In this document: in pieces, positions 5,267 to 48,787 of the stretch
Layout of the letters: each line of letters opens with the position of its first letter
Numbering within the stretch: the first letter of the stretch is position 1
Source: a virus
Lineage: Duplodnaviria; Heunggongvirae; Uroviricota; Caudoviricetes
Virus record (IMG/VR): IMGVR_UViG_2718218304_000001
Coordinates: 50,160 to 114,159 of that record
DNA: 64,000 bases
Reading direction: 5' to 3' (one strand)
The notes under the pieces: model-generated
Seen by the model: only the letters and a program-made list of their open reading frames with translations
The model's database searches: none
Told to the model about the DNA's origin: nothing
Translations under genes and position numbers: made by a program

Positions 5267-5742
5267 TACGACCTTCTGTATACGATCTGCGAAAAGCCAG
5301 GCTCTTCCTCGCTGGCTCGTTGGGTATAAGCTGTTTCAACAGGCACAAAGCCTAAGTTACGCATCATGCTTGCCGGGAAGAATGCATCGGCGTTTGGTAC
5401 ATCAACGCCGATGTGGGAGAGCCAAATCTCTTCAACATGCGGCATGAATAGCGAGTAAATTTGTTCCCCGCCAATCACCCACACAGGCTCTGGTAATCGC
5501 AACACATCATCCACACCAGCAAGGTAGAATCCATTTGGTACAAAGCCATGAGAGCGCGTCAAAACGAGGTTATGACGCTCTGGAAGAGGGCGTTTGAGAC
5601 TTTCCATCGTTTTACGTCCCATAACGACAGTGGCGTTTTTGGTGAGTCTCTTAAATAGCTTCAGATCGGTAGAACAACGCCAGGGGAGTTCATTCGCTAT
5701 GCCGATCTCATAGTTACGGCCAACAGCAGCGATCATCTTCAT
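5266..5742 (-). CDS. folA: dihydrofolate reductase
   Basis: DHFR-like N-terminus (IAAVGRNYEIG...LPW), VIGGEQIY motif; 158 aa. Confidence 0.85.
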   Translation of the reverse strand: MKMIAAVGRNYEIGIANELPWRCSTDLKLFKRLTKNATVVMGRKTMESLKRPLPERHNLVLTRSHGFVPNGFYLAGVDDVLRLPEPVWVIGGEQIYSLFMPHVEEIWLSHIGVDVPNADAFFPASMMRNLGFVPVETAYTQRASEEEPGFSQIVYRRS

Positions 5743-38797: not shown

Positions 38798-38874
38798 TGG
38801 TGCCGGTTAACGGGATCGAACCGCTGACATCCTGCTTACAAGGCAGACGCTCTACCAACTGAGCTAAACCGGCA
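38798..38874 (-). tRNA. tRNA-Thr (anticodon TGT)
   Basis: Hand-folded: acceptor GCCGGTT/AACCGGC, D-arm GCTC-AGTTGGTA-GAGC, anticodon loop CTTGTAA, T-loop TTCGATC, CCA. Confidence 0.8.
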
Positions 38875-38877
38875 ATT

Positions 38878-38964
38878 TGGTGGGGAGTGATGGAGTCGAA
38901 CCACCCGAGTCGCAATGACAGTAGATTTACAGTCTACCCCGCTGCCCCTACGGACTAACTCCCC
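38878..38964 (-). tRNA. tRNA-Tyr (anticodon GTA), long variable arm
   Basis: Hand-folded: acceptor GGGGAGT/ACTCCCC, anticodon arm GTAGA-CTGTAAA-TCTAC, T-loop TTCGACT, CCA; D-arm pairing less clear. Confidence 0.7.
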
Positions 38965-38969
38965 TAAAT

Positions 38970-39044
38970 TGGCGATGGTGGGTGGATTCGAACCACCGAC
39001 CAGTTGGTTAACAGCCAACTGCTCTACCGCTGAGCTACACCATC
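38970..39044 (-). tRNA. tRNA-Asn (anticodon GTT)
   Basis: Hand-folded: acceptor GATGGTG/CACCATC, D-arm GCTC-AGCGGTA-GAGC, anticodon arm GTTGG-CTGTTAA-CCAAC, T-arm GGTGG-TTCGAAT-CCACC, CCA. Confidence 0.85.
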
Positions 39045-40258: not shown

Positions 40259-40474
40259 TCATTTTAACGCTCCTGATTCTACTAATTGCTGTAGCAATAC
40301 TTTCCCTTTATCAGTTAACTGGTAGTTGGCCGAACACCACGTTTCAGAAACGTTTGCAACCAACCCTAACCGCTCTAACTTAGCTCGCGTTTTAGGCTTC
40401 CAGTACTCAGGGAACTCCGGCCACTTACTTATTTCATGAAGCGTTTCTTTCTCCCGTTTACTTAATACGATCAT
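40259..40474 (-). CDS. hypothetical small protein
   Basis: 71-aa ORF overlapping the ligase stop. Confidence 0.4.
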   Translation of the reverse strand: MIVLSKREKETLHEISKWPEFPEYWKPKTRAKLERLGLVANVSETWCSANYQLTDKGKVLLQQLVESGALK

Positions 40475-41793
40475 TCTTTATCTCCGATTCGATCTTCGGT
40501 ATCGCGTAAGCAACGCGGCCATTTCAGTCGTGGGTGGCGTAAGCTGCCATCCGGCGTTTTCTCGTGACAATGAACCTCGACAATACGACCACGGTACTTC
40601 TCTTTGTTGTTCCAGATCTCGTCCAGATATTTATGCTTAATGCCGCTCGCACGAACAATCACACCGTTTTCAAGGCGAATAACAATTTTTCCAAGCGTGT
40701 TGGCAAAACCAGAGTCCGGGTCGCCAGGCTCAAAGTCGATAATTTCACCATCTTCTGAATCTTCGTCTTTTAACTTCCACCAGCTGCGGGTACGTTTAAA
40801 CTCGTAAACAGAGTTCGGATCTTTGCCCATCTCCCCTTCTTCGTTATCGTCCAGGCGTTTCATGAAGCGTTCGATGAAGTCTTCGTGGCTATGGATGATG
40901 TAGAACGGATGAAGGTGGATATCTTGCGCATAATCTTCCACGCAAGTGTTGCGGAACAACGCCACCAGCATAGCCAGGCGCTCTTTCAGCTTCATACCGG
41001 TCTTCAGGTACTCTTTGCTTTTTGCTTGAGCACGCCACTCCGGTAAGAAGAAATCGAAAATGTGGTAAACGGCACCAATGGCTTTCACGTTCTTCTTACG
41101 AAGCGCCGACACTGACTGGTTGAATGTACCTGCAGTGCCCTCTCCATCGAAGAAGATGTGATTGAAGCCGGAGAGTCTGCCCCGCTCCAGCATGGCTGGT
41201 TTAAGGTGATCGAGTGACGTAATCGGATTGCCGGTGCGCGTCAGGAAATTGACCTCACCCTCGTCCACGATGACTTCGCAGATAACCCGGAGACCATCGA
41301 GTTTGAGACTGCCGATCATTGGCCACTTGGCCTTTGGATTTGGTTTAAATGGGTATTTGTCGCCTTTCTCCTTGTACGGAGACGCCAGCTGTACCTCAAA
41401 CTTCGGAATTGGGTTTTTGAACACCTTGTTGCACAGGCTGATGCCGACACCGGCTTTCGGATCTTTCAGCAGGAAGCGACGAAACACGTCCTGCCCGTCA
41501 GCGCACATCGAGGCAACGAGTGATTCGACAGCAGCAATAGCGATGTTCCCGGTCAGTTCGCGCGCTGCCAGCTTCTCCAGCAGATCTACTACCTTCTGGT
41601 CGCTGGGTACGGAAGTATCGAGTGGCTCGGCCACTTTGTACTTCTTCACACCGAATCGAATGAATGGATTGAGCATTAGCGAGACCATGCTCTGTTCAAA
41701 TTCATCCAGATTGGCCAGCGCCTCTTTCTTGGCGTTGGTTCCCATCGTTTTAATAGCATCCAGCTTGTGCTTTAGGGCGATCAGTTTTTCCAT
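40471..41793 (-). CDS. ATP-dependent DNA ligase
   Basis: Adenylation motif I SLKLDGLRV (KxDG) and downstream nucleotidyltransferase/OB-domain pattern; 440 aa. Confidence 0.8.
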   Translation of the reverse strand: MEKLIALKHKLDAIKTMGTNAKKEALANLDEFEQSMVSLMLNPFIRFGVKKYKVAEPLDTSVPSDQKVVDLLEKLAARELTGNIAIAAVESLVASMCADGQDVFRRFLLKDPKAGVGISLCNKVFKNPIPKFEVQLASPYKEKGDKYPFKPNPKAKWPMIGSLKLDGLRVICEVIVDEGEVNFLTRTGNPITSLDHLKPAMLERGRLSGFNHIFFDGEGTAGTFNQSVSALRKKNVKAIGAVYHIFDFFLPEWRAQAKSKEYLKTGMKLKERLAMLVALFRNTCVEDYAQDIHLHPFYIIHSHEDFIERFMKRLDDNEEGEMGKDPNSVYEFKRTRSWWKLKDEDSEDGEIIDFEPGDPDSGFANTLGKIVIRLENGVIVRASGIKHKYLDEIWNNKEKYRGRIVEVHCHEKTPDGSLRHPRLKWPRCLRDTEDRIGDKE

Positions 41794-41827
41794 TAGTGTT
41801 TAACCTCCATCGGTCGCTCGGGAGTTT

Positions 41828-42303
41828 TCATGTGTTTTCTTTGGTTGCTTCTTCAATGAGTGCCGCGTACACGTCAGTGATCGACGCCAGTGAATCGGTG
41901 GGCTTGGTTTCGGATTTAGCAGGTTCTGTTTTCTTCGTGCGATGAATAAGACTGTCAATTGTCGCGGAGTTTCGCTTCCGGGGGGCGTTCTGGCATGGTC
42001 GTTTTGCTCTTCCACTTCTTTGATAAGTGAAGACATATCGATGAAGTAGAGCTGTTCGCCTTTGCGGATCTCTTCGACCATCATTTTCAGTGCCTGACAT
42101 TTACCAGCAGCAATAGCCGCAGCACAGGACTGGAACGATGTAGCCGGGAGACGTTTTTCTTTATAGGCGAGGATCGTGTGTTGGCAGACTGTATAGCTGC
42201 AATGAGCCTCATGGCCGTTGAGCTTCACTTCCGGGCAGCGCAGCGAATAACCGTTGTTTCCGGAGATAGACGGGATTTTCGACAAATCTGTTCTTGTGGA
42301 CAT
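41828..42303 (-). pseudogene. Cys-rich hypothetical gene split between two frames at a C6 homopolymer (frameshift, sequencing error or slippage)
   Basis: Track ORFs 41800..42303 and 41828..42100 overlap in different frames. The N-terminal half is protein-like only in the first frame and the C-terminal half only in the second; the switch coincides with CCCCCC at about 41980-41985. Confidence 0.4.
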
Positions 42304-42383
42304 GCTTCTAACCGTAATCTTGTACTTACTTATTAATCGCAGTTTAAAGAAGCCCCACGAGGGGCTAAATGTTTTATCGAGGC

Positions 42384-43196
42384 TTACCAGGTCGCCCAGC
42401 CAGTCATTTTGTCCTGAGCAGCTTCGAACCGGTATGGGTCCAGTAAATCGTTGGCATGGTGGACGGCGTAGGATTTGGCTTCTTGTTTAATCATGGGTAA
42501 TTCGTTGGCCAGACGAGCCACTTGCCCTGCAAAACTGGCGAGTACTCCGTCACATGCCTGACCCGCGTCGACAATGATGCGCACCAGGTCTAAGTCGCTG
42601 CGGCACATATCGCAGATAATGCCGTATTCCACCTCACGAATGCGCTCAACGGCTTTTTTGATATCGCCACTGACCACCAATTCCAGCAAACCAGGTGGAG
42701 TTGTCAGATCTGTTACGCGCTCGGTAACTTCAGACTGTTCGACAATACTCAGGAACGCCGCGATGGACGGGTCATCCGCCACACCAGCTCTGACTTTGAG
42801 CGTGCGAAGAGTTGCGTCGACAATATCCTCAAACCGTTCACCTTCATCGCACACAGTCTGATTGGTGTAGACAGTCTGATTAGTGTAGACAATGCGACCG
42901 TCGTACCATGCACCGGTACTCACTTCGACCGTTGCGTCTTTCATCTCGCGAGAGAACGCCACAAGTGCCGCGCGTTTCTGCTTAACACCTGGCAACTCCG
43001 GGGACTCTCCAAAACGAACCCAGACCTGCATGTATTTCGAGCCTTCCGAAAGAGGTGCGGCGCTCACGGACGTGGCGATATGCTCCAGCGCAGTTTGGAT
43101 CGCCTCGTCGATAATCTTCTGGCGCTCTTCTGTATCAATTTCTACGCCGGATTTGTCGATGATGTCGCAGACTAACTTCTGAAATTCTTCTTTCAT
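42384..43196 (-). CDS. hypothetical protein
   Basis: 270-aa ORF; internal tandem repeat IVYTNQTV YTNQTV. Confidence 0.5.
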   Translation of the reverse strand: MKEEFQKLVCDIIDKSGVEIDTEERQKIIDEAIQTALEHIATSVSAAPLSEGSKYMQVWVRFGESPELPGVKQKRAALVAFSREMKDATVEVSTGAWYDGRIVYTNQTVYTNQTVCDEGERFEDIVDATLRTLKVRAGVADDPSIAAFLSIVEQSEVTERVTDLTTPPGLLELVVSGDIKKAVERIREVEYGIICDMCRSDLDLVRIIVDAGQACDGVLASFAGQVARLANELPMIKQEAKSYAVHHANDLLDPYRFEAAQDKMTGWATW

Positions 43197-43883: not shown

Positions 43884-44856
43884 AACCATGGAAAACGAGC
43901 TGCTGAAAGAAGCCGTTGAATATGGCCGACAAAAAAAGTGGATAGCGCACGTGCCCTTGTTGCCGGAGGATGGTGAATGAGCCTTGTCAGTCGTTGCCTC
44001 CGGGTCTCACGTGCGCAACTGCATGCCATGGCCCGTCGGTCGAAGGGCTGGCAGGATCGTCGGTGCAAGCGCAAGCCTGATGATACTGAAGCGCTGGCTC
44101 GTATCCATACCGTTATCGACGATCTGCCCACCTATGGTTATCGTCGTGTATGGGTACTGCTGCGCAGACAATCAGAAACTGACGACATGGCGGTGATCAA
44201 TGCCAAACGCGTATACCGCATCATGCGTCAGAATGCGCTGCTGCTTGAGCGTAAACCGGCAATACCGCCCTCGAAGCGGGCGCATAGAGGGAAAGTGGCC
44301 GTTGGAGAAAGTAACCAGCGGTGGTGCTCCGACGGCTTCGGGTTCAGCTGTGATAACGGTGAAAAACTGCGGATCACGTTCGCGCTGGACTGTTGCGAGC
44401 GCGAGGCACTTCACTGGGCAGCAAGTACCGGTGGATATGACAGTGAAACCGTGCAGGACGTCATGCTGGGTGCAGTAGAGCGTCGCTTCGGTAACAGGCT
44501 GCCGACATCCCCCGTTGAGTGGCTGACAGACAACGGTTCAGCCTACCGTTCTCATCAGACGCGTCAGTTCGCCAGAATGGTAGGACTGGAGCCAAAACAT
44601 ACGGCGGTACGTAGTCCAGAAAGCAACGGAATGGCGGAGAGCTTCGTGAAAACGATGAAGCGCGACTACATCAGTATCATGCCAAAACCTGACGGGTTAA
44701 CAGCGGCAAAGAACCTTGCGGAGGCCTTCGAACATTACAACGAATGGCATCCGCACAGTGCACTGGGATATCGTTCTCCACGGGAATATCTGCGGCGGCG
44801 AACCAGTAATGGGTTAAGCGATAAAAAGTGTCTGGAAATATAGGGGCCAATCCACA
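43884..44856 (+). mobile_element. IS2-like element, 5'-truncated (last ~30 codons of orfA, complete orfB, right inverted repeat)
   Basis: orfA C-terminus [39 protein letters not shown] matches my recollection of IS2 InsC; right end ...TATAGGGGCCAATCCA. Confidence 0.8.
43977..44843 (+). CDS. insD: IS2-like transposase OrfB (InsD-like, DDE integrase core)
   Basis: 288 aa, highly similar to IS2 InsD as I recall it (..YGYRRVW..LRRQ..; DDE/RNase H-fold core). Confidence 0.85.
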
Positions 44857-44984
44857 TGGAAATGTTTTTGATTAAAATAAAAAATATTCTTTTATATTGC
44901 TCTATCATTTTTATTTTTAGTAATTTATTAGCAAGAGATTGCGATCTCTTTTTTAGTTAAAGCAAATTAGTTAAGGATTAGTCT

Positions 44985-45536
44985 ATGAAACGTTCAATTA
45001 TTGCGGCTACTGTATTAGCATCTCTTTTTATGAGCGCAGGATCATTTGCAGCAGAAGGGAGTACAGAGGGTCAGTTAACTATTAACGGTAAAGTCACAGA
45101 GACTACATGTCAGTTCCTGAGCGGTAGTGAGAATACAACAATTTCGATGAGCGAAATTGGTCGTGATCAATTTGAAAATGTAGAAGTTGGCTCCCCCGTT
45201 ACCACTTATTCAAATACAACATCTTTACCACTAAAAGTTAAATGTCCCGGAGAAAAAAAACCAAGAATTACCTTCTCCAGCACCCAATTTGAAGGAACGG
45301 GTTCAAATGTTACTCGCAATACTGGTGATGCTAGCGGTGTCGGTTTCGCTGTTTTTTTGGGGAAAGGTACTGATTCTAGCAAGCGGATTTCTGGTAATAG
45401 TCCTATTGAGTTAACATCAGCTACTAATAATGGTGAATATGAGTTGCATTTTACGGCGCAATACGCAAAAGCAGCTGATGATGTGAGTACTGGCGAAGTT
45501 AGTTCTGCGATAACAATGACCGTTGTAACAGATTAA
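44985..45536 (+). CDS. fimbrial major subunit (chaperone-usher pilin)
   Basis: Signal peptide MKRSIIAATVLASLFMSAGSFA; conserved Cys pair (TCQF...KVKCPG); ~160-aa mature pilin-like protein. Confidence 0.8.
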   Translation: MKRSIIAATVLASLFMSAGSFAAEGSTEGQLTINGKVTETTCQFLSGSENTTISMSEIGRDQFENVEVGSPVTTYSNTTSLPLKVKCPGEKKPRITFSSTQFEGTGSNVTRNTGDASGVGFAVFLGKGTDSSKRISGNSPIELTSATNNGEYELHFTAQYAKAADDVSTGEVSSAITMTVVTD

Positions 45537-45591
45537 CATGATGTTTATCGGCGGCTTCGGTCGCCGATTTTCAATCGCAAGGATTGTTATC

Positions 45592-46272
45592 ATGAAAAAA
45601 TTAATAGCCTTCTTACTAACCGTAACGGTCCCATCTGCGTGGGGCGGTGTCTATATTTACGGCACTCGCGTTATTTATCCGGAACAGAAAAAAGAGATTG
45701 CAGTTCAGTTAATGAATGAAGGTGAGCGTAGTGCTCTTGTTCAGTCGTGGATTGATGATGGCGATGCCAGCCTTCCTCCGGAAAAGATTAGTGTACCTTT
45801 TGTGCTGACTCCACCGGTAGTTCATGTTAGTAAGGGTGAAGGACAGCAACTGAAAATTAAACAACTGGCGAACACTCTACCTAAAGATCGCGAAAGTCTG
45901 TTCTTCCTTAATGTACTGGATATTCCACCTAATAGTGAGAAATACGAAGGCAAGAATCTGATTAAATTCGCGATGCAAAATCGTATCAAATTTATTTATC
46001 GCCCAAAAGGTATAACAAGAGTCGATAAAGAGAGTTTTTCCCGGATTAATATCAGACCCGTTGATAGAGGCATTAACATAAAAAATAATTCAGCGAACTG
46101 GATAACCATTCCTGAATTAACCGGGAATGCGAAAATTAATAAGGAGACACTACTGCTGGCACCCTGGTCAGATCAGACTGTCAAAACGACATCCGTTGTT
46201 AACTATTACAATGTTACTCTGATTGATGATCATGGAAACTATTTGAGTGAAAAAATAAAAACTGCTAAATAG
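45592..46272 (+). CDS. periplasmic fimbrial chaperone (PapD/FimC-like)
   Basis: Track ORF 45538..46272; ATG at 45592 with AAGGA SD and signal peptide MKKLIAFLLTVTVPSAWG; PapD-like motifs (IYPE, LVQSWID, NRIKFIYRP). Confidence 0.85.
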   Translation: MKKLIAFLLTVTVPSAWGGVYIYGTRVIYPEQKKEIAVQLMNEGERSALVQSWIDDGDASLPPEKISVPFVLTPPVVHVSKGEGQQLKIKQLANTLPKDRESLFFLNVLDIPPNSEKYEGKNLIKFAMQNRIKFIYRPKGITRVDKESFSRINIRPVDRGINIKNNSANWITIPELTGNAKINKETLLLAPWSDQTVKTTSVVNYYNVTLIDDHGNYLSEKIKTAK

Positions 46273-46289
46273 ATTAGCAGGGATTGGTT

Positions 46290-48776
46290 ATGTCAAAGTT
46301 TAATTCTATTACACTGGCTATTCTGTCAGTATTAGCGACTTCGCATACATGGGCTAAGGGTGAAACGTTTAATACCAATTTTATGATTGGTGGTTTAAAT
46401 GGGGAGAAAATTTCTAACTACCATATTGATAGTGATAAGCCGATGCCGGGTATCTACGCTATGGATGTTTATCTGAATAATCAATGGCGTGGCCACTATG
46501 ATATTGATATTAAAGATGACCCTAATGCAACATGTTTATCCATGGAGCAATTAAAGCAAATTGGGATCCTCACTGAAGGAATTAGTATCGATAAAGGCGT
46601 AGAATGTGTACCACTTCGGGATGCTGTCCAGGGAGGCAGCGTCGACTATGATATTGGGCATTTTAACCTAAAATTAAGCGTGCCCCAAGCCTATGTTCTG
46701 AAATATGAACATGGCTATATTCCGCCTGAAGCATGGGATCGCGGGATTAACGCATTATATACATCTTATTATGCCAGTCAGTATTACAGTGATTATAAAA
46801 ACGGCGGAGATGATAAAAGTAGCTATCTAAATCTGAACAGTGGGTTAAATCTCCTGGGCTGGCAGCTGCATTCAAATGCCAATTATACGAAAAGCGACGA
46901 AAACAGCGGTAAATGGAAGAGTAACACGCTATATCTGGAACGTGGAATTCCACAAATTCTCGGCACGTTTCGCGCAGGTGAAATGTATACTGGTTCTGAT
47001 GTTTTTGACTCCGTGCGTTTTCGCGGCGTGCGCCTTTGGCGCGATATGCAGATGTTACCGAACTCTAAACAGAATTTTACTCCTGTGGTACGCGGCGTTG
47101 CCCAGAGTAACGCACTCGTCACCATAGAACAAAATGGTTTTGTGGTTTACCAGAAAGAAGTACCGCCAGGCCCATTCGCCATTGATGATTTGCAACTTTC
47201 TAATGGTGGGGCAGATTTGGAAGTTATCGTCAAAGAAGCTGATGGTTCAACGTCGTACTATCGGGTGCCTTATTCATCGGTGCCAAATATGTTGCAACCT
47301 GGCGTTTCTAAATATGAATTTTCAGCCGGACGTAGTCATATTGAAGGAGCCAGCAATCAATCTGATTTTATCCAGGGAAGCTATAAGCATGGTTTCAACA
47401 ATTTGCTGACAGGTTATGGCGGCACGCTGTTATCTGATAATTACTCATCGTTTGTTCTTGGAACAGGATGGAATACACCGATTGGTGCTATATCGGTTGA
47501 TTTTACCCATTCATACAGCAAGCAAGACAACGGTGATGTGTTTAACGGTCAAAGTTATCAGATTGCCTGGAATAAATATCTCTCTCAGAGCGGAACACAA
47601 TTTTCTCTGGCGGCCTGGCGTTATTCCTCTCGGGGTTATCGTACTTTTAACGATCATGTATGGGCAAATAACAAAAATAGATACAATCGAGAAGACAACT
47701 CAGGCTATGACATTGCCAACTACTACCAGTATGATTTTGGTCGCAAGAATAGCTTTTCTTTAAATATCAACCAGTCATTACCGGAAAATTGGGGGTATCT
47801 GGCGATCAGCGGTCAATGGCGAGATTACTGGGAACGTAGCGGGACAGGGAAAAATTACCAACTAAGCTATACGAACTCATGGGAACGTCTAAGTTATACC
47901 TTGTCGGTTAGCCAGACATACGATGAGGATAACAGCGAAGACAGACGCATTAACTTATTTTTCTCAATCCCCTTCTCGTGGCGTGATAATATCACCGAAA
48001 AACGACGAGATTTATTTATCTCTAACTCGACCACATTTGATAAAGACGGCTACCAGTCAAATACTACCAGCCTCAGTGGTGTAGCTGGGAACCGTGATCA
48101 GTTCAGCTACGGGGCTAACTTTAGCCATCAACAACAGGACAGCGAAGCAACAGCAGGTGGAAATCTGATTTGGCGTGCGCCAGTGGCTACCATTGGTGGC
48201 AGCTATAGCCAGTCGAAAAAATATCAACAGATAAGTGGTAATATTCAAGGTGGTTTAGTCGCGTGGTCAGACGGGATAGCACTGGCTCCCAGACTTTCAG
48301 ATACATTTACCATCGTCCATGCTCCGGGGCTGGATGGGGCTGCGGTACAGGGGTATCGTTACCTGAGCACGGATAGCCGAGGTTACGCTATTTATGACAG
48401 CCTGACGCCGTATCGTAAAAACACGTTGATGCTGGATACTTCTGACAGTCAAAGCGATGTGGCACTACTGGGCAACCGTAAAAGCACCGCTCCTTATCGT
48501 GGGGCCGTTGTGATGACGCAGTTTGATACTGACAAACGTAAACCCTGGTATTTCCTTGCTCAGCGCCCGGATGGTTCTCCATTATCGTTCGGTTATGAAG
48601 TTGAAGATGAAAGCGGTAAGAATGTGGGCTTGGTAGGACAGGGAAGTCGGATATTTATTCGCACTGATGATGTTCCCGCATCGATTCGCGTCTCGGTTAA
48701 TAAACAGCAGGAAAAATTCTGTACTATTACCTTTGATAACGTTATTGATGAGAATAAAGTTTATATTTGTCGTTAA
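46290..48776 (+). CDS. outer-membrane fimbrial usher (FimD/PapC-like)
   Basis: ~830 aa, signal peptide, usher-like sequence throughout, C-terminal Cys pair; track start 46284 is TTG, ATG at 46290. Confidence 0.85.
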   Translation: MSKFNSITLAILSVLATSHTWAKGETFNTNFMIGGLNGEKISNYHIDSDKPMPGIYAMDVYLNNQWRGHYDIDIKDDPNATCLSMEQLKQIGILTEGISIDKGVECVPLRDAVQGGSVDYDIGHFNLKLSVPQAYVLKYEHGYIPPEAWDRGINALYTSYYASQYYSDYKNGGDDKSSYLNLNSGLNLLGWQLHSNANYTKSDENSGKWKSNTLYLERGIPQILGTFRAGEMYTGSDVFDSVRFRGVRLWRDMQMLPNSKQNFTPVVRGVAQSNALVTIEQNGFVVYQKEVPPGPFAIDDLQLSNGGADLEVIVKEADGSTSYYRVPYSSVPNMLQPGVSKYEFSAGRSHIEGASNQSDFIQGSYKHGFNNLLTGYGGTLLSDNYSSFVLGTGWNTPIGAISVDFTHSYSKQDNGDVFNGQSYQIAWNKYLSQSGTQFSLAAWRYSSRGYRTFNDHVWANNKNRYNREDNSGYDIANYYQYDFGRKNSFSLNINQSLPENWGYLAISGQWRDYWERSGTGKNYQLSYTNSWERLSYTLSVSQTYDEDNSEDRRINLFFSIPFSWRDNITEKRRDLFISNSTTFDKDGYQSNTTSLSGVAGNRDQFSYGANFSHQQQDSEATAGGNLIWRAPVATIGGSYSQSKKYQQISGNIQGGLVAWSDGIALAPRLSDTFTIVHAPGLDGAAVQGYRYLSTDSRGYAIYDSLTPYRKNTLMLDTSDSQSDVALLGNRKSTAPYRGAVVMTQFDTDKRKPWYFLAQRPDGSPLSFGYEVEDESGKNVGLVGQGSRIFIRTDDVPASIRVSVNKQQEKFCTITFDNVIDENKVYICR

Positions 48777-48787
48777 AGGATTTGTTT

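Follow-up and report, generated by a model that had tools for sequence, protein, structure and literature searches.

Two overlapping minus-strand reading frames at 41800..42303 and 41828..42100 of the window (the whole stretch of DNA that was analysed, 64,000 nucleotides in length) belong to one gene, and its split is very probably explained by an inherited one-base deletion in a homopolymer. The coding strand of the window carries six C residues (C6) at the point where the frame changes, and the closest intact relatives carry seven (C7). The shorter run is a deletion and the derived state, it falls into a single cluster of sequences, and it is present in many independent assemblies. Nothing in the sequence marks the feature as a recoding site, it is no demonstrated contingency locus, and it does not stem from an error in this particular assembly.

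The window originates from a phage-plasmid of E. coli that belongs to the SSU5 type, a group named in PMC7969092. Plasmids in 46 complete genomes of E. coli match the region at 99-100% identity; in these genomes it is always found on a plasmid and never on the chromosome.

Layout of the disrupted gene

The longer reading frame (frame A, 41800..42303) starts with ATG at 42303, ends with TAA at 41802-41800 and encodes 167 aa. The shorter one (frame B, 41828..42100; 90 aa) ends with TGA at 41830-41828 and is in the -1 frame relative to frame A. The coding-strand CCCCCC occupies exactly positions 41985-41980 and is the sole plus-strand G run of at least six in the window. The codons at the run are ACG CCC CCC GGA in frame A (Thr106 Pro107 Pro108 Gly109) and GCC CCC CGG AAG CGA in the -1 frame. 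Homology assigns residues 1-108 to frame A as its native part, and residues 109-158, encoded by 50 codons ahead of the TGA, to frame B. Base 41980 is common to Pro108, where the native part of frame A ends, and to Arg109 (CGG), where that of frame B begins. The features of the locus are as follows.

41828..42303, minus strand: the whole disrupted gene, orthologue of SSU5_043 and of phrog_5055; 476 nt (with C7 it would be 477 nt, 158 aa).
41980..42303, minus strand: native frame A part, codons 1-108, with the folded N-terminal domain (C23, C40, C60, C69, E78), as indicated by the alignments and the AlphaFold2 model.
41980..41985, minus strand: C6 homopolymer, site of the one-base deletion; the closest intact relatives have C7.
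41828..41980, minus strand: native frame B part, codons 109-158 and TGA, with the basic linker (RKRN...) and the C-terminal helix motif ITDVYAALIEEATKENT, as indicated by the alignments, the helix being taken from the model.
41800..41979, minus strand: out-of-frame tail of frame A, 59 codons and TAA, which crosses the native stop and the ligase Shine-Dalgarno sequence.
41804..41808, minus strand: ligase Shine-Dalgarno sequence GGAGG, read from the sequence, now within the extended frame A reading frame.
40471..41793, minus strand: ATP-dependent DNA ligase of 440 aa, conserved as the next gene downstream (PF01068, E 1.1e-11; phrog_114, E 8e-124).
42384..43196, minus strand: conserved 270-aa hypothetical gene (phrog_4248, PHROGs match), the upstream neighbour.

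In the window copy the frame B part (41828..41980) is uncoupled from the N-terminal domain. Its stop is separated from the ligase ATG (41793) by 34 nt, and the frame A tail stops 6 nt before the same ATG. The earlier note on this DNA had described two frames with a switch at the C6 run at about 41980-41985, and its coordinates and description are all correct. Its estimate of about 100 N-terminal codons in frame A and about 55 C-terminal codons in frame B comes close to the 108 and 50 codons obtained by homology. Translation of the 90-aa frame alone from the ATG at 42100 was also considered and rejected: its first 40 codons overlap the conserved frame A domain out of frame and have no homologues.

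Orthologues and gene order

With one C added, the window protein has 158 aa and matches phrog_5055 from end to end (residues 1-158 of 158 against positions 1-154 of 155 of the profile, E 1.7e-91). Judged by this E-value, the full-length match of the repaired protein is far beyond chance, and by homology the window copy is a disrupted member of the family. The frame A product as it stands (P0010) matches only over its own first two thirds; it covers 68% of the repaired query, and its tail has no homology in the relatives. The C-terminal motif ITDVYAALIEE is not part of a single uninterrupted reading frame in the window, where it sits in the -1 frame past C6.

The orthologue in Salmonella phage SSU5 is SSU5_043 (AFL46970.1), a single 477-nt reading frame located between a hypothetical gene and a "putative DNA ligase". 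Orthologues on E. coli plasmids include WP_185081212.1 (pYLPI6a) and WP_176386592.1 (pTB212). The window DNA is 93% identical to that of SSU5 over 1.3 kb, and the gene occupies the same slot between the 270-aa gene and the ligase. In contrast to the window copy, which is 476 nt long and split, SSU5_043 and the plasmid orthologues are one 477-nt reading frame; in the case of pYLPI6a the indel is the sole difference from the window gene.

The split gene belongs to the replication module. The gene order in an insertion-free relative is DnaB-like helicase, primase, 270-aa gene, orthologue of the split gene and ligase. The window copy keeps its immediate neighbours, with the phrog_4248 gene upstream and the ATP-dependent ligase downstream (expected in the family at about 35-40 nt). 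Among 80 related IMG/VR loci, which were retrieved using a 21-sequence alignment, the 270-aa gene is found upstream in all 80 and a ligase match downstream in 78. The distance from the stop to the ligase is nearly the same as in the window in 76 of these 78 loci, in agreement with the earlier remark that frame B ends with normal spacing before the ligase.

Protein architecture and the predicted product of the C6 allele

An exhaustive profile search resulted in 196 hits at E <= 0.001, and 101 relatives were aligned. The family consists of three parts: a conserved N-terminal domain (1-101), a variable basic linker with a widely conserved start R/K-K-R, and the C-terminal motif ITDVYAALIEEATKENT. 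Residues C23, C40, C60, C69 and E78 are invariant in the 101 sequences, and frame A of the window has all five. Their pattern suggests that the N-terminal domain may be metal-binding or otherwise cysteine-dependent. In the AlphaFold2 model, based on the alignment of 101 relatives, the 10-residue blocks covering residues 11-100 have mean pLDDT of 91-97 and form a beta-hairpin and then four helices; confidence in the linker is low, and the C-terminal helix is located at 144-155. Neither the repaired protein nor the 101 relatives have a match in Pfam, a profile search of PDB sequences gave no match at E <= 1, and the matches in PHROGs are only to families of unassigned function.

The frameshift at residue 108/109 is located directly past the folded domain. 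Translation of the C6 allele would give residues 1-108, i.e. the whole folded four-cysteine domain, followed by 59 unrelated residues up to the TAA, and the predicted product would have these residues in place of the basic linker and the conserved C-terminal helix, which are lost. The function of the protein would probably be lost or altered, and the gene may be dispensable for plasmid maintenance. One may also speculate that the new stop of the shifted frame could alter translational coupling of the ligase. A more elaborate proposal would regard C6 as a selected separation-of-function variant. Such a variant would keep the four-cysteine domain and shed a C-terminal partner-binding helix, its stop 6 nt before the ligase ATG would couple ligase translation, and occasional slippage or reversion at the tract could turn it into a switch tuning lytic replication. 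We consider this proposal highly improbable; if it were true, it might help explain the spread of the allele on resistance-carrying plasmids in Asia.

Origin and shortening of the C run

In the alignment the site reads C6 in the window, pYY76-1-1 and pYPE3-114k, C7 in pTB212, and CTTACCC in SSU5, which differs from the window in having no homopolymer at the site. The 25 fetched loci show the same succession of states: CTTACCC in SSU5, CTCCCCC in 4 records, CCCCCCC in 12 distinct ones and CCCCCC in 7 distinct ones. In the 80 IMG/VR loci C7 occurs once and CTCCCCC eight times, the rest being CT[T/A/C]ACCC or unrelated (with shorter C runs or none). The protein is encoded in one frame in all 80 of these loci and in 30 of the 35 closely related plasmids of complete E. 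coli genomes.

Comparison with orthologues had been named beforehand as a check by the earlier note, which offered a frameshift mutation, an assembly error or translational slippage as explanations. The relatives show one uninterrupted reading frame, whether with C7, with CTCCCCC or with no homopolymer, and the C6 sequences form a tight cluster beside an intact C7 relative. The frameshift mutation is thus borne out, while the assembly error is disfavoured and programmed slippage is not supported, as discussed below together with the respective evidence.

The run was probably built in this sub-lineage by two point substitutions, which would have led from CT[T/A/C]ACCC via CTCCCCC to CCCCCCC. 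One C was then lost from C7, most likely via strand slippage during DNA replication, and the resulting C6 allele was passed down in a plasmid clade now present in China, Laos, Vietnam and Thailand. G:C homopolymers of at least six are rare in the 64-kb window (3 seen vs ~16 expected from composition), so the ancestral C7 would be the longest G:C run in 64 kb; it is a plausible hot spot of slippage. A:T runs of at least six are common in the window (64 were counted).

Distribution of the C6 allele

The frequency of the two run lengths was estimated with a 66-nt probe. PLSDB contains 6 exact C6 matches vs 32 close relatives with a run one base longer, and the complete E. coli genomes contain 5 vs 30; C6 is the minority allele. 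Seven complete plasmids carry C6; their sources were samples of cow, pig, pork, human and air origin collected in China, Laos, Vietnam and Thailand. In a collection of 15 billion proteins, the exact 167-aa shifted product is found on 92 contigs (146 index blocks), and the exact repaired 158-aa protein on 183 contigs. All C6 records, of which 17 distinct ones were read, share one identical 476-nt gene sequence, which means that the allele is young. Relaxed selection is not demonstrated by these sequences: the C6 carriers have no substitutions in the gene, and the allele is too young for decay. Its wide spread could mean that C6 is tolerated or even favoured, and not simply broken.

These records bear directly on the question of whether the true sequence is C7, with one C dropped by homopolymer miscalling. 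Errors in homopolymers give exactly such splits, and long-read finishing was probably used for some of the complete plasmids. Moreover, the Logan contig ERR13326640 carries CTCCCC in the C5 background together with several further broken genes (DnaB, the ligase and the 270-aa gene) and has the look of noisy reads. However, the identical C6 gene is present in the 17 distinct records, which come from different laboratories and countries. CCCCCC, flanked by undamaged 270-aa and 440-aa genes, is seen at each of ten places that were examined: in one SPAdes-style contig from ENA, in five draft assemblies of WGS type, in two from Logan and in two complete plasmids. The 92 contigs with the shifted product argue in the same direction, and C6 goes together with the flanking SNPs in a single cluster, a pattern not expected of random error. 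The allele is confined neither to one assembly nor to error-rich contigs. The assembly error suggested earlier is disfavoured on these grounds, and miscalling of a true C7 appears extremely unlikely. The CTCCCC of ERR13326640 (locus L026) was also considered as a second independent frameshift allele and was judged to be read noise, DnaB, the 270-aa gene and the ligase being split there as well.

A neighbour-joining tree was built from the region of the site, using 2,188 ungapped columns and leaving out that of the indel; the tree is midpoint-rooted and carries no support values. All 18 of 18 C6 sequences fall into one tight cluster and are at most 7 differences apart. The sole non-C6 member of this cluster is the C7 plasmid pYLPI6a, which is 1-5 differences away from the C6 sequences. 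The remaining C7 sequences are placed just outside the cluster, and those with CTCCCCC farther out. This arrangement speaks for a single origin of C6.

The C6 carriers have two downstream backgrounds, which are near-identical upstream and densely different from the 3' third of the ligase onward (the recombination breakpoint is placed at 40471-40900 of the window, i.e. the ligase 3' third, and downstream). The downstream genes of the two groups differ too, with a 216-nt reading frame in one vs 177- and 213-nt reading frames in the other. Recombination after one deletion is the simplest account of these backgrounds and is favoured over two independent deletions because the flanks are otherwise near-identical.

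The same tree can be confronted with the view that the C tract is a reversible contingency switch, in which C6 and C7 would interconvert often and so toggle the C-terminal part of the protein. Both tract lengths do occur among near-identical plasmids, and the C7 plasmid pYLPI6a, being 1 difference away from C6 sequences, could be a revertant and not an ancestor. The poly-C/G contingency loci of Neisseria, Haemophilus and Campylobacter resemble the present case in that a coding G:C run changes by one unit and shifts the frame. The tracts of contingency loci are typically at least 8 long, whereas the tract discussed here is short (6-7); it is also located late in the gene, two thirds into it, and is absent from most of the family. 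Furthermore, only two lengths (C6 and C7) were found, and the 18 C6 sequences lie in one cluster and are not scattered. Repeated length changes scattered among close relatives are not seen; the window shows one inferred change, clonally inherited. A reversible switch is therefore very unlikely, and the inherited deletion remains the preferred explanation. A culture of a C6 carrier may nevertheless contain both tract lengths.

Expression across the C run

Synthesis of the full-length protein from the C6 allele could in principle proceed by -1 ribosomal frameshifting on CCC CCC or by RNA polymerase slippage. A -1 shift on C6 would exactly restore the native frame. A peptidyl-tRNA(Pro) that sits on CCC can slip back by one base and pair with CCC again, and CGG, the next codon of the -1 frame at the run, is a rare Arg codon in E. 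coli; both points speak for recoding. However, the slippery heptamer X XXY YYZ was not found in the 0 frame at C6, where frame A would offer G CCC CCC instead. A stimulatory element (a downstream hairpin or pseudoknot, or an upstream Shine-Dalgarno-like sequence) was not found near C6 either: a 96-nt segment that spans the run and extends downstream of it has -11 kcal/mol vs a shuffle mean of -10.9 (z = -0.03), and GGAGG is absent upstream of the run. The known cases of bacterial transcriptional slippage involve long A or T runs, which counts against slippage of the polymerase here. The two-frame layout is found in one young clade only and is not conserved among the relatives, given the single frame in the 80 IMG/VR loci and in 30 of the 35 close E. 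coli plasmids.

Programmed -1 sites of phages and IS elements, such as those of the tail-assembly chaperone G/GT, dnaX and IS3 orfAB, are similar to the window in having overlapping frames in -1 relation and a run of identical bases. They differ from it in that the window has no canonical heptamer, stimulatory structure or conserved arrangement; moreover, both products of true recoding sites are conserved across relatives, unlike in the window. Taken as a programmed feature, the translational slippage offered by the earlier note finds no support in the same three observations (heptamer, structure and conservation of the layout), and synthesis of the full-length protein by either route is hardly to be expected. 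A low rate of accidental -1 slippage may still occur at the proline codons or the C run of a gene that carries the inherited deletion. A promoter scan of 3.1 kb gave only one promoter-like site, below the shuffle mean.

Annotation and significance

The lesion is already known. The identical sequence is called "hypothetical protein; frameshifted" by the PGAP pipeline of NCBI in the three RefSeq plasmids CP040928, CP041451 and CP182176, and the corresponding pseudogenes FH040_RS23760 (pYY76-1-1, CP040928), FNP78_RS23835 (pYPE3-114k, CP041451) and ACNHKP_RS25800 (pCUPF07B, CP182176) contain the same 476-nt C6 allele. At the gene itself there is no difference between them and the window; the downstream backgrounds vary among the carriers. 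This is a real but ordinary homopolymer lesion of the pseudogene type, and the frames 41800..42303 and 41828..42100 call for annotation as a single frameshifted gene, not as two proteins. Its import beyond annotation hygiene is little. It is a tidy case in which substitutions create a homopolymer and slippage, as proposed above, collapses it, and the C6 allele can be used as a lineage marker of one clade of SSU5-type phage-plasmids.

Other features of the phage-plasmid background

Several other features of the region were observed. At 43977-49807 of the window an IS3-family transposase remnant and a yehD-type chaperone-usher fimbrial operon lie inside the replication module, where they part the primase (50724-51935, minus strand) from the 270-aa gene. 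A G+C-rich hairpin (AGCCCC-TCGT-GGGGCT on the minus strand) is found at 42351-42366, in the 80 nt that separate the 270-aa gene from the split gene; in a scan it has a terminator-like score on the plus strand only. An 82-bp tandem duplication in plasmid pTAir-3 (CP063951; locus L007), at ~5630-5720, takes in the end of the intergenic region together with the initial ~60 bases of the gene; it may be genuine or may stem from assembly. A cluster of four tRNA genes (Ser-TGA, Thr-TGT, Tyr-GTA and Asn-GTT) is located at 38391-39044 of the window (minus strand), and the annotation of the related plasmid pCUPF07B lists tRNAs for Asn, Thr and Ser only.
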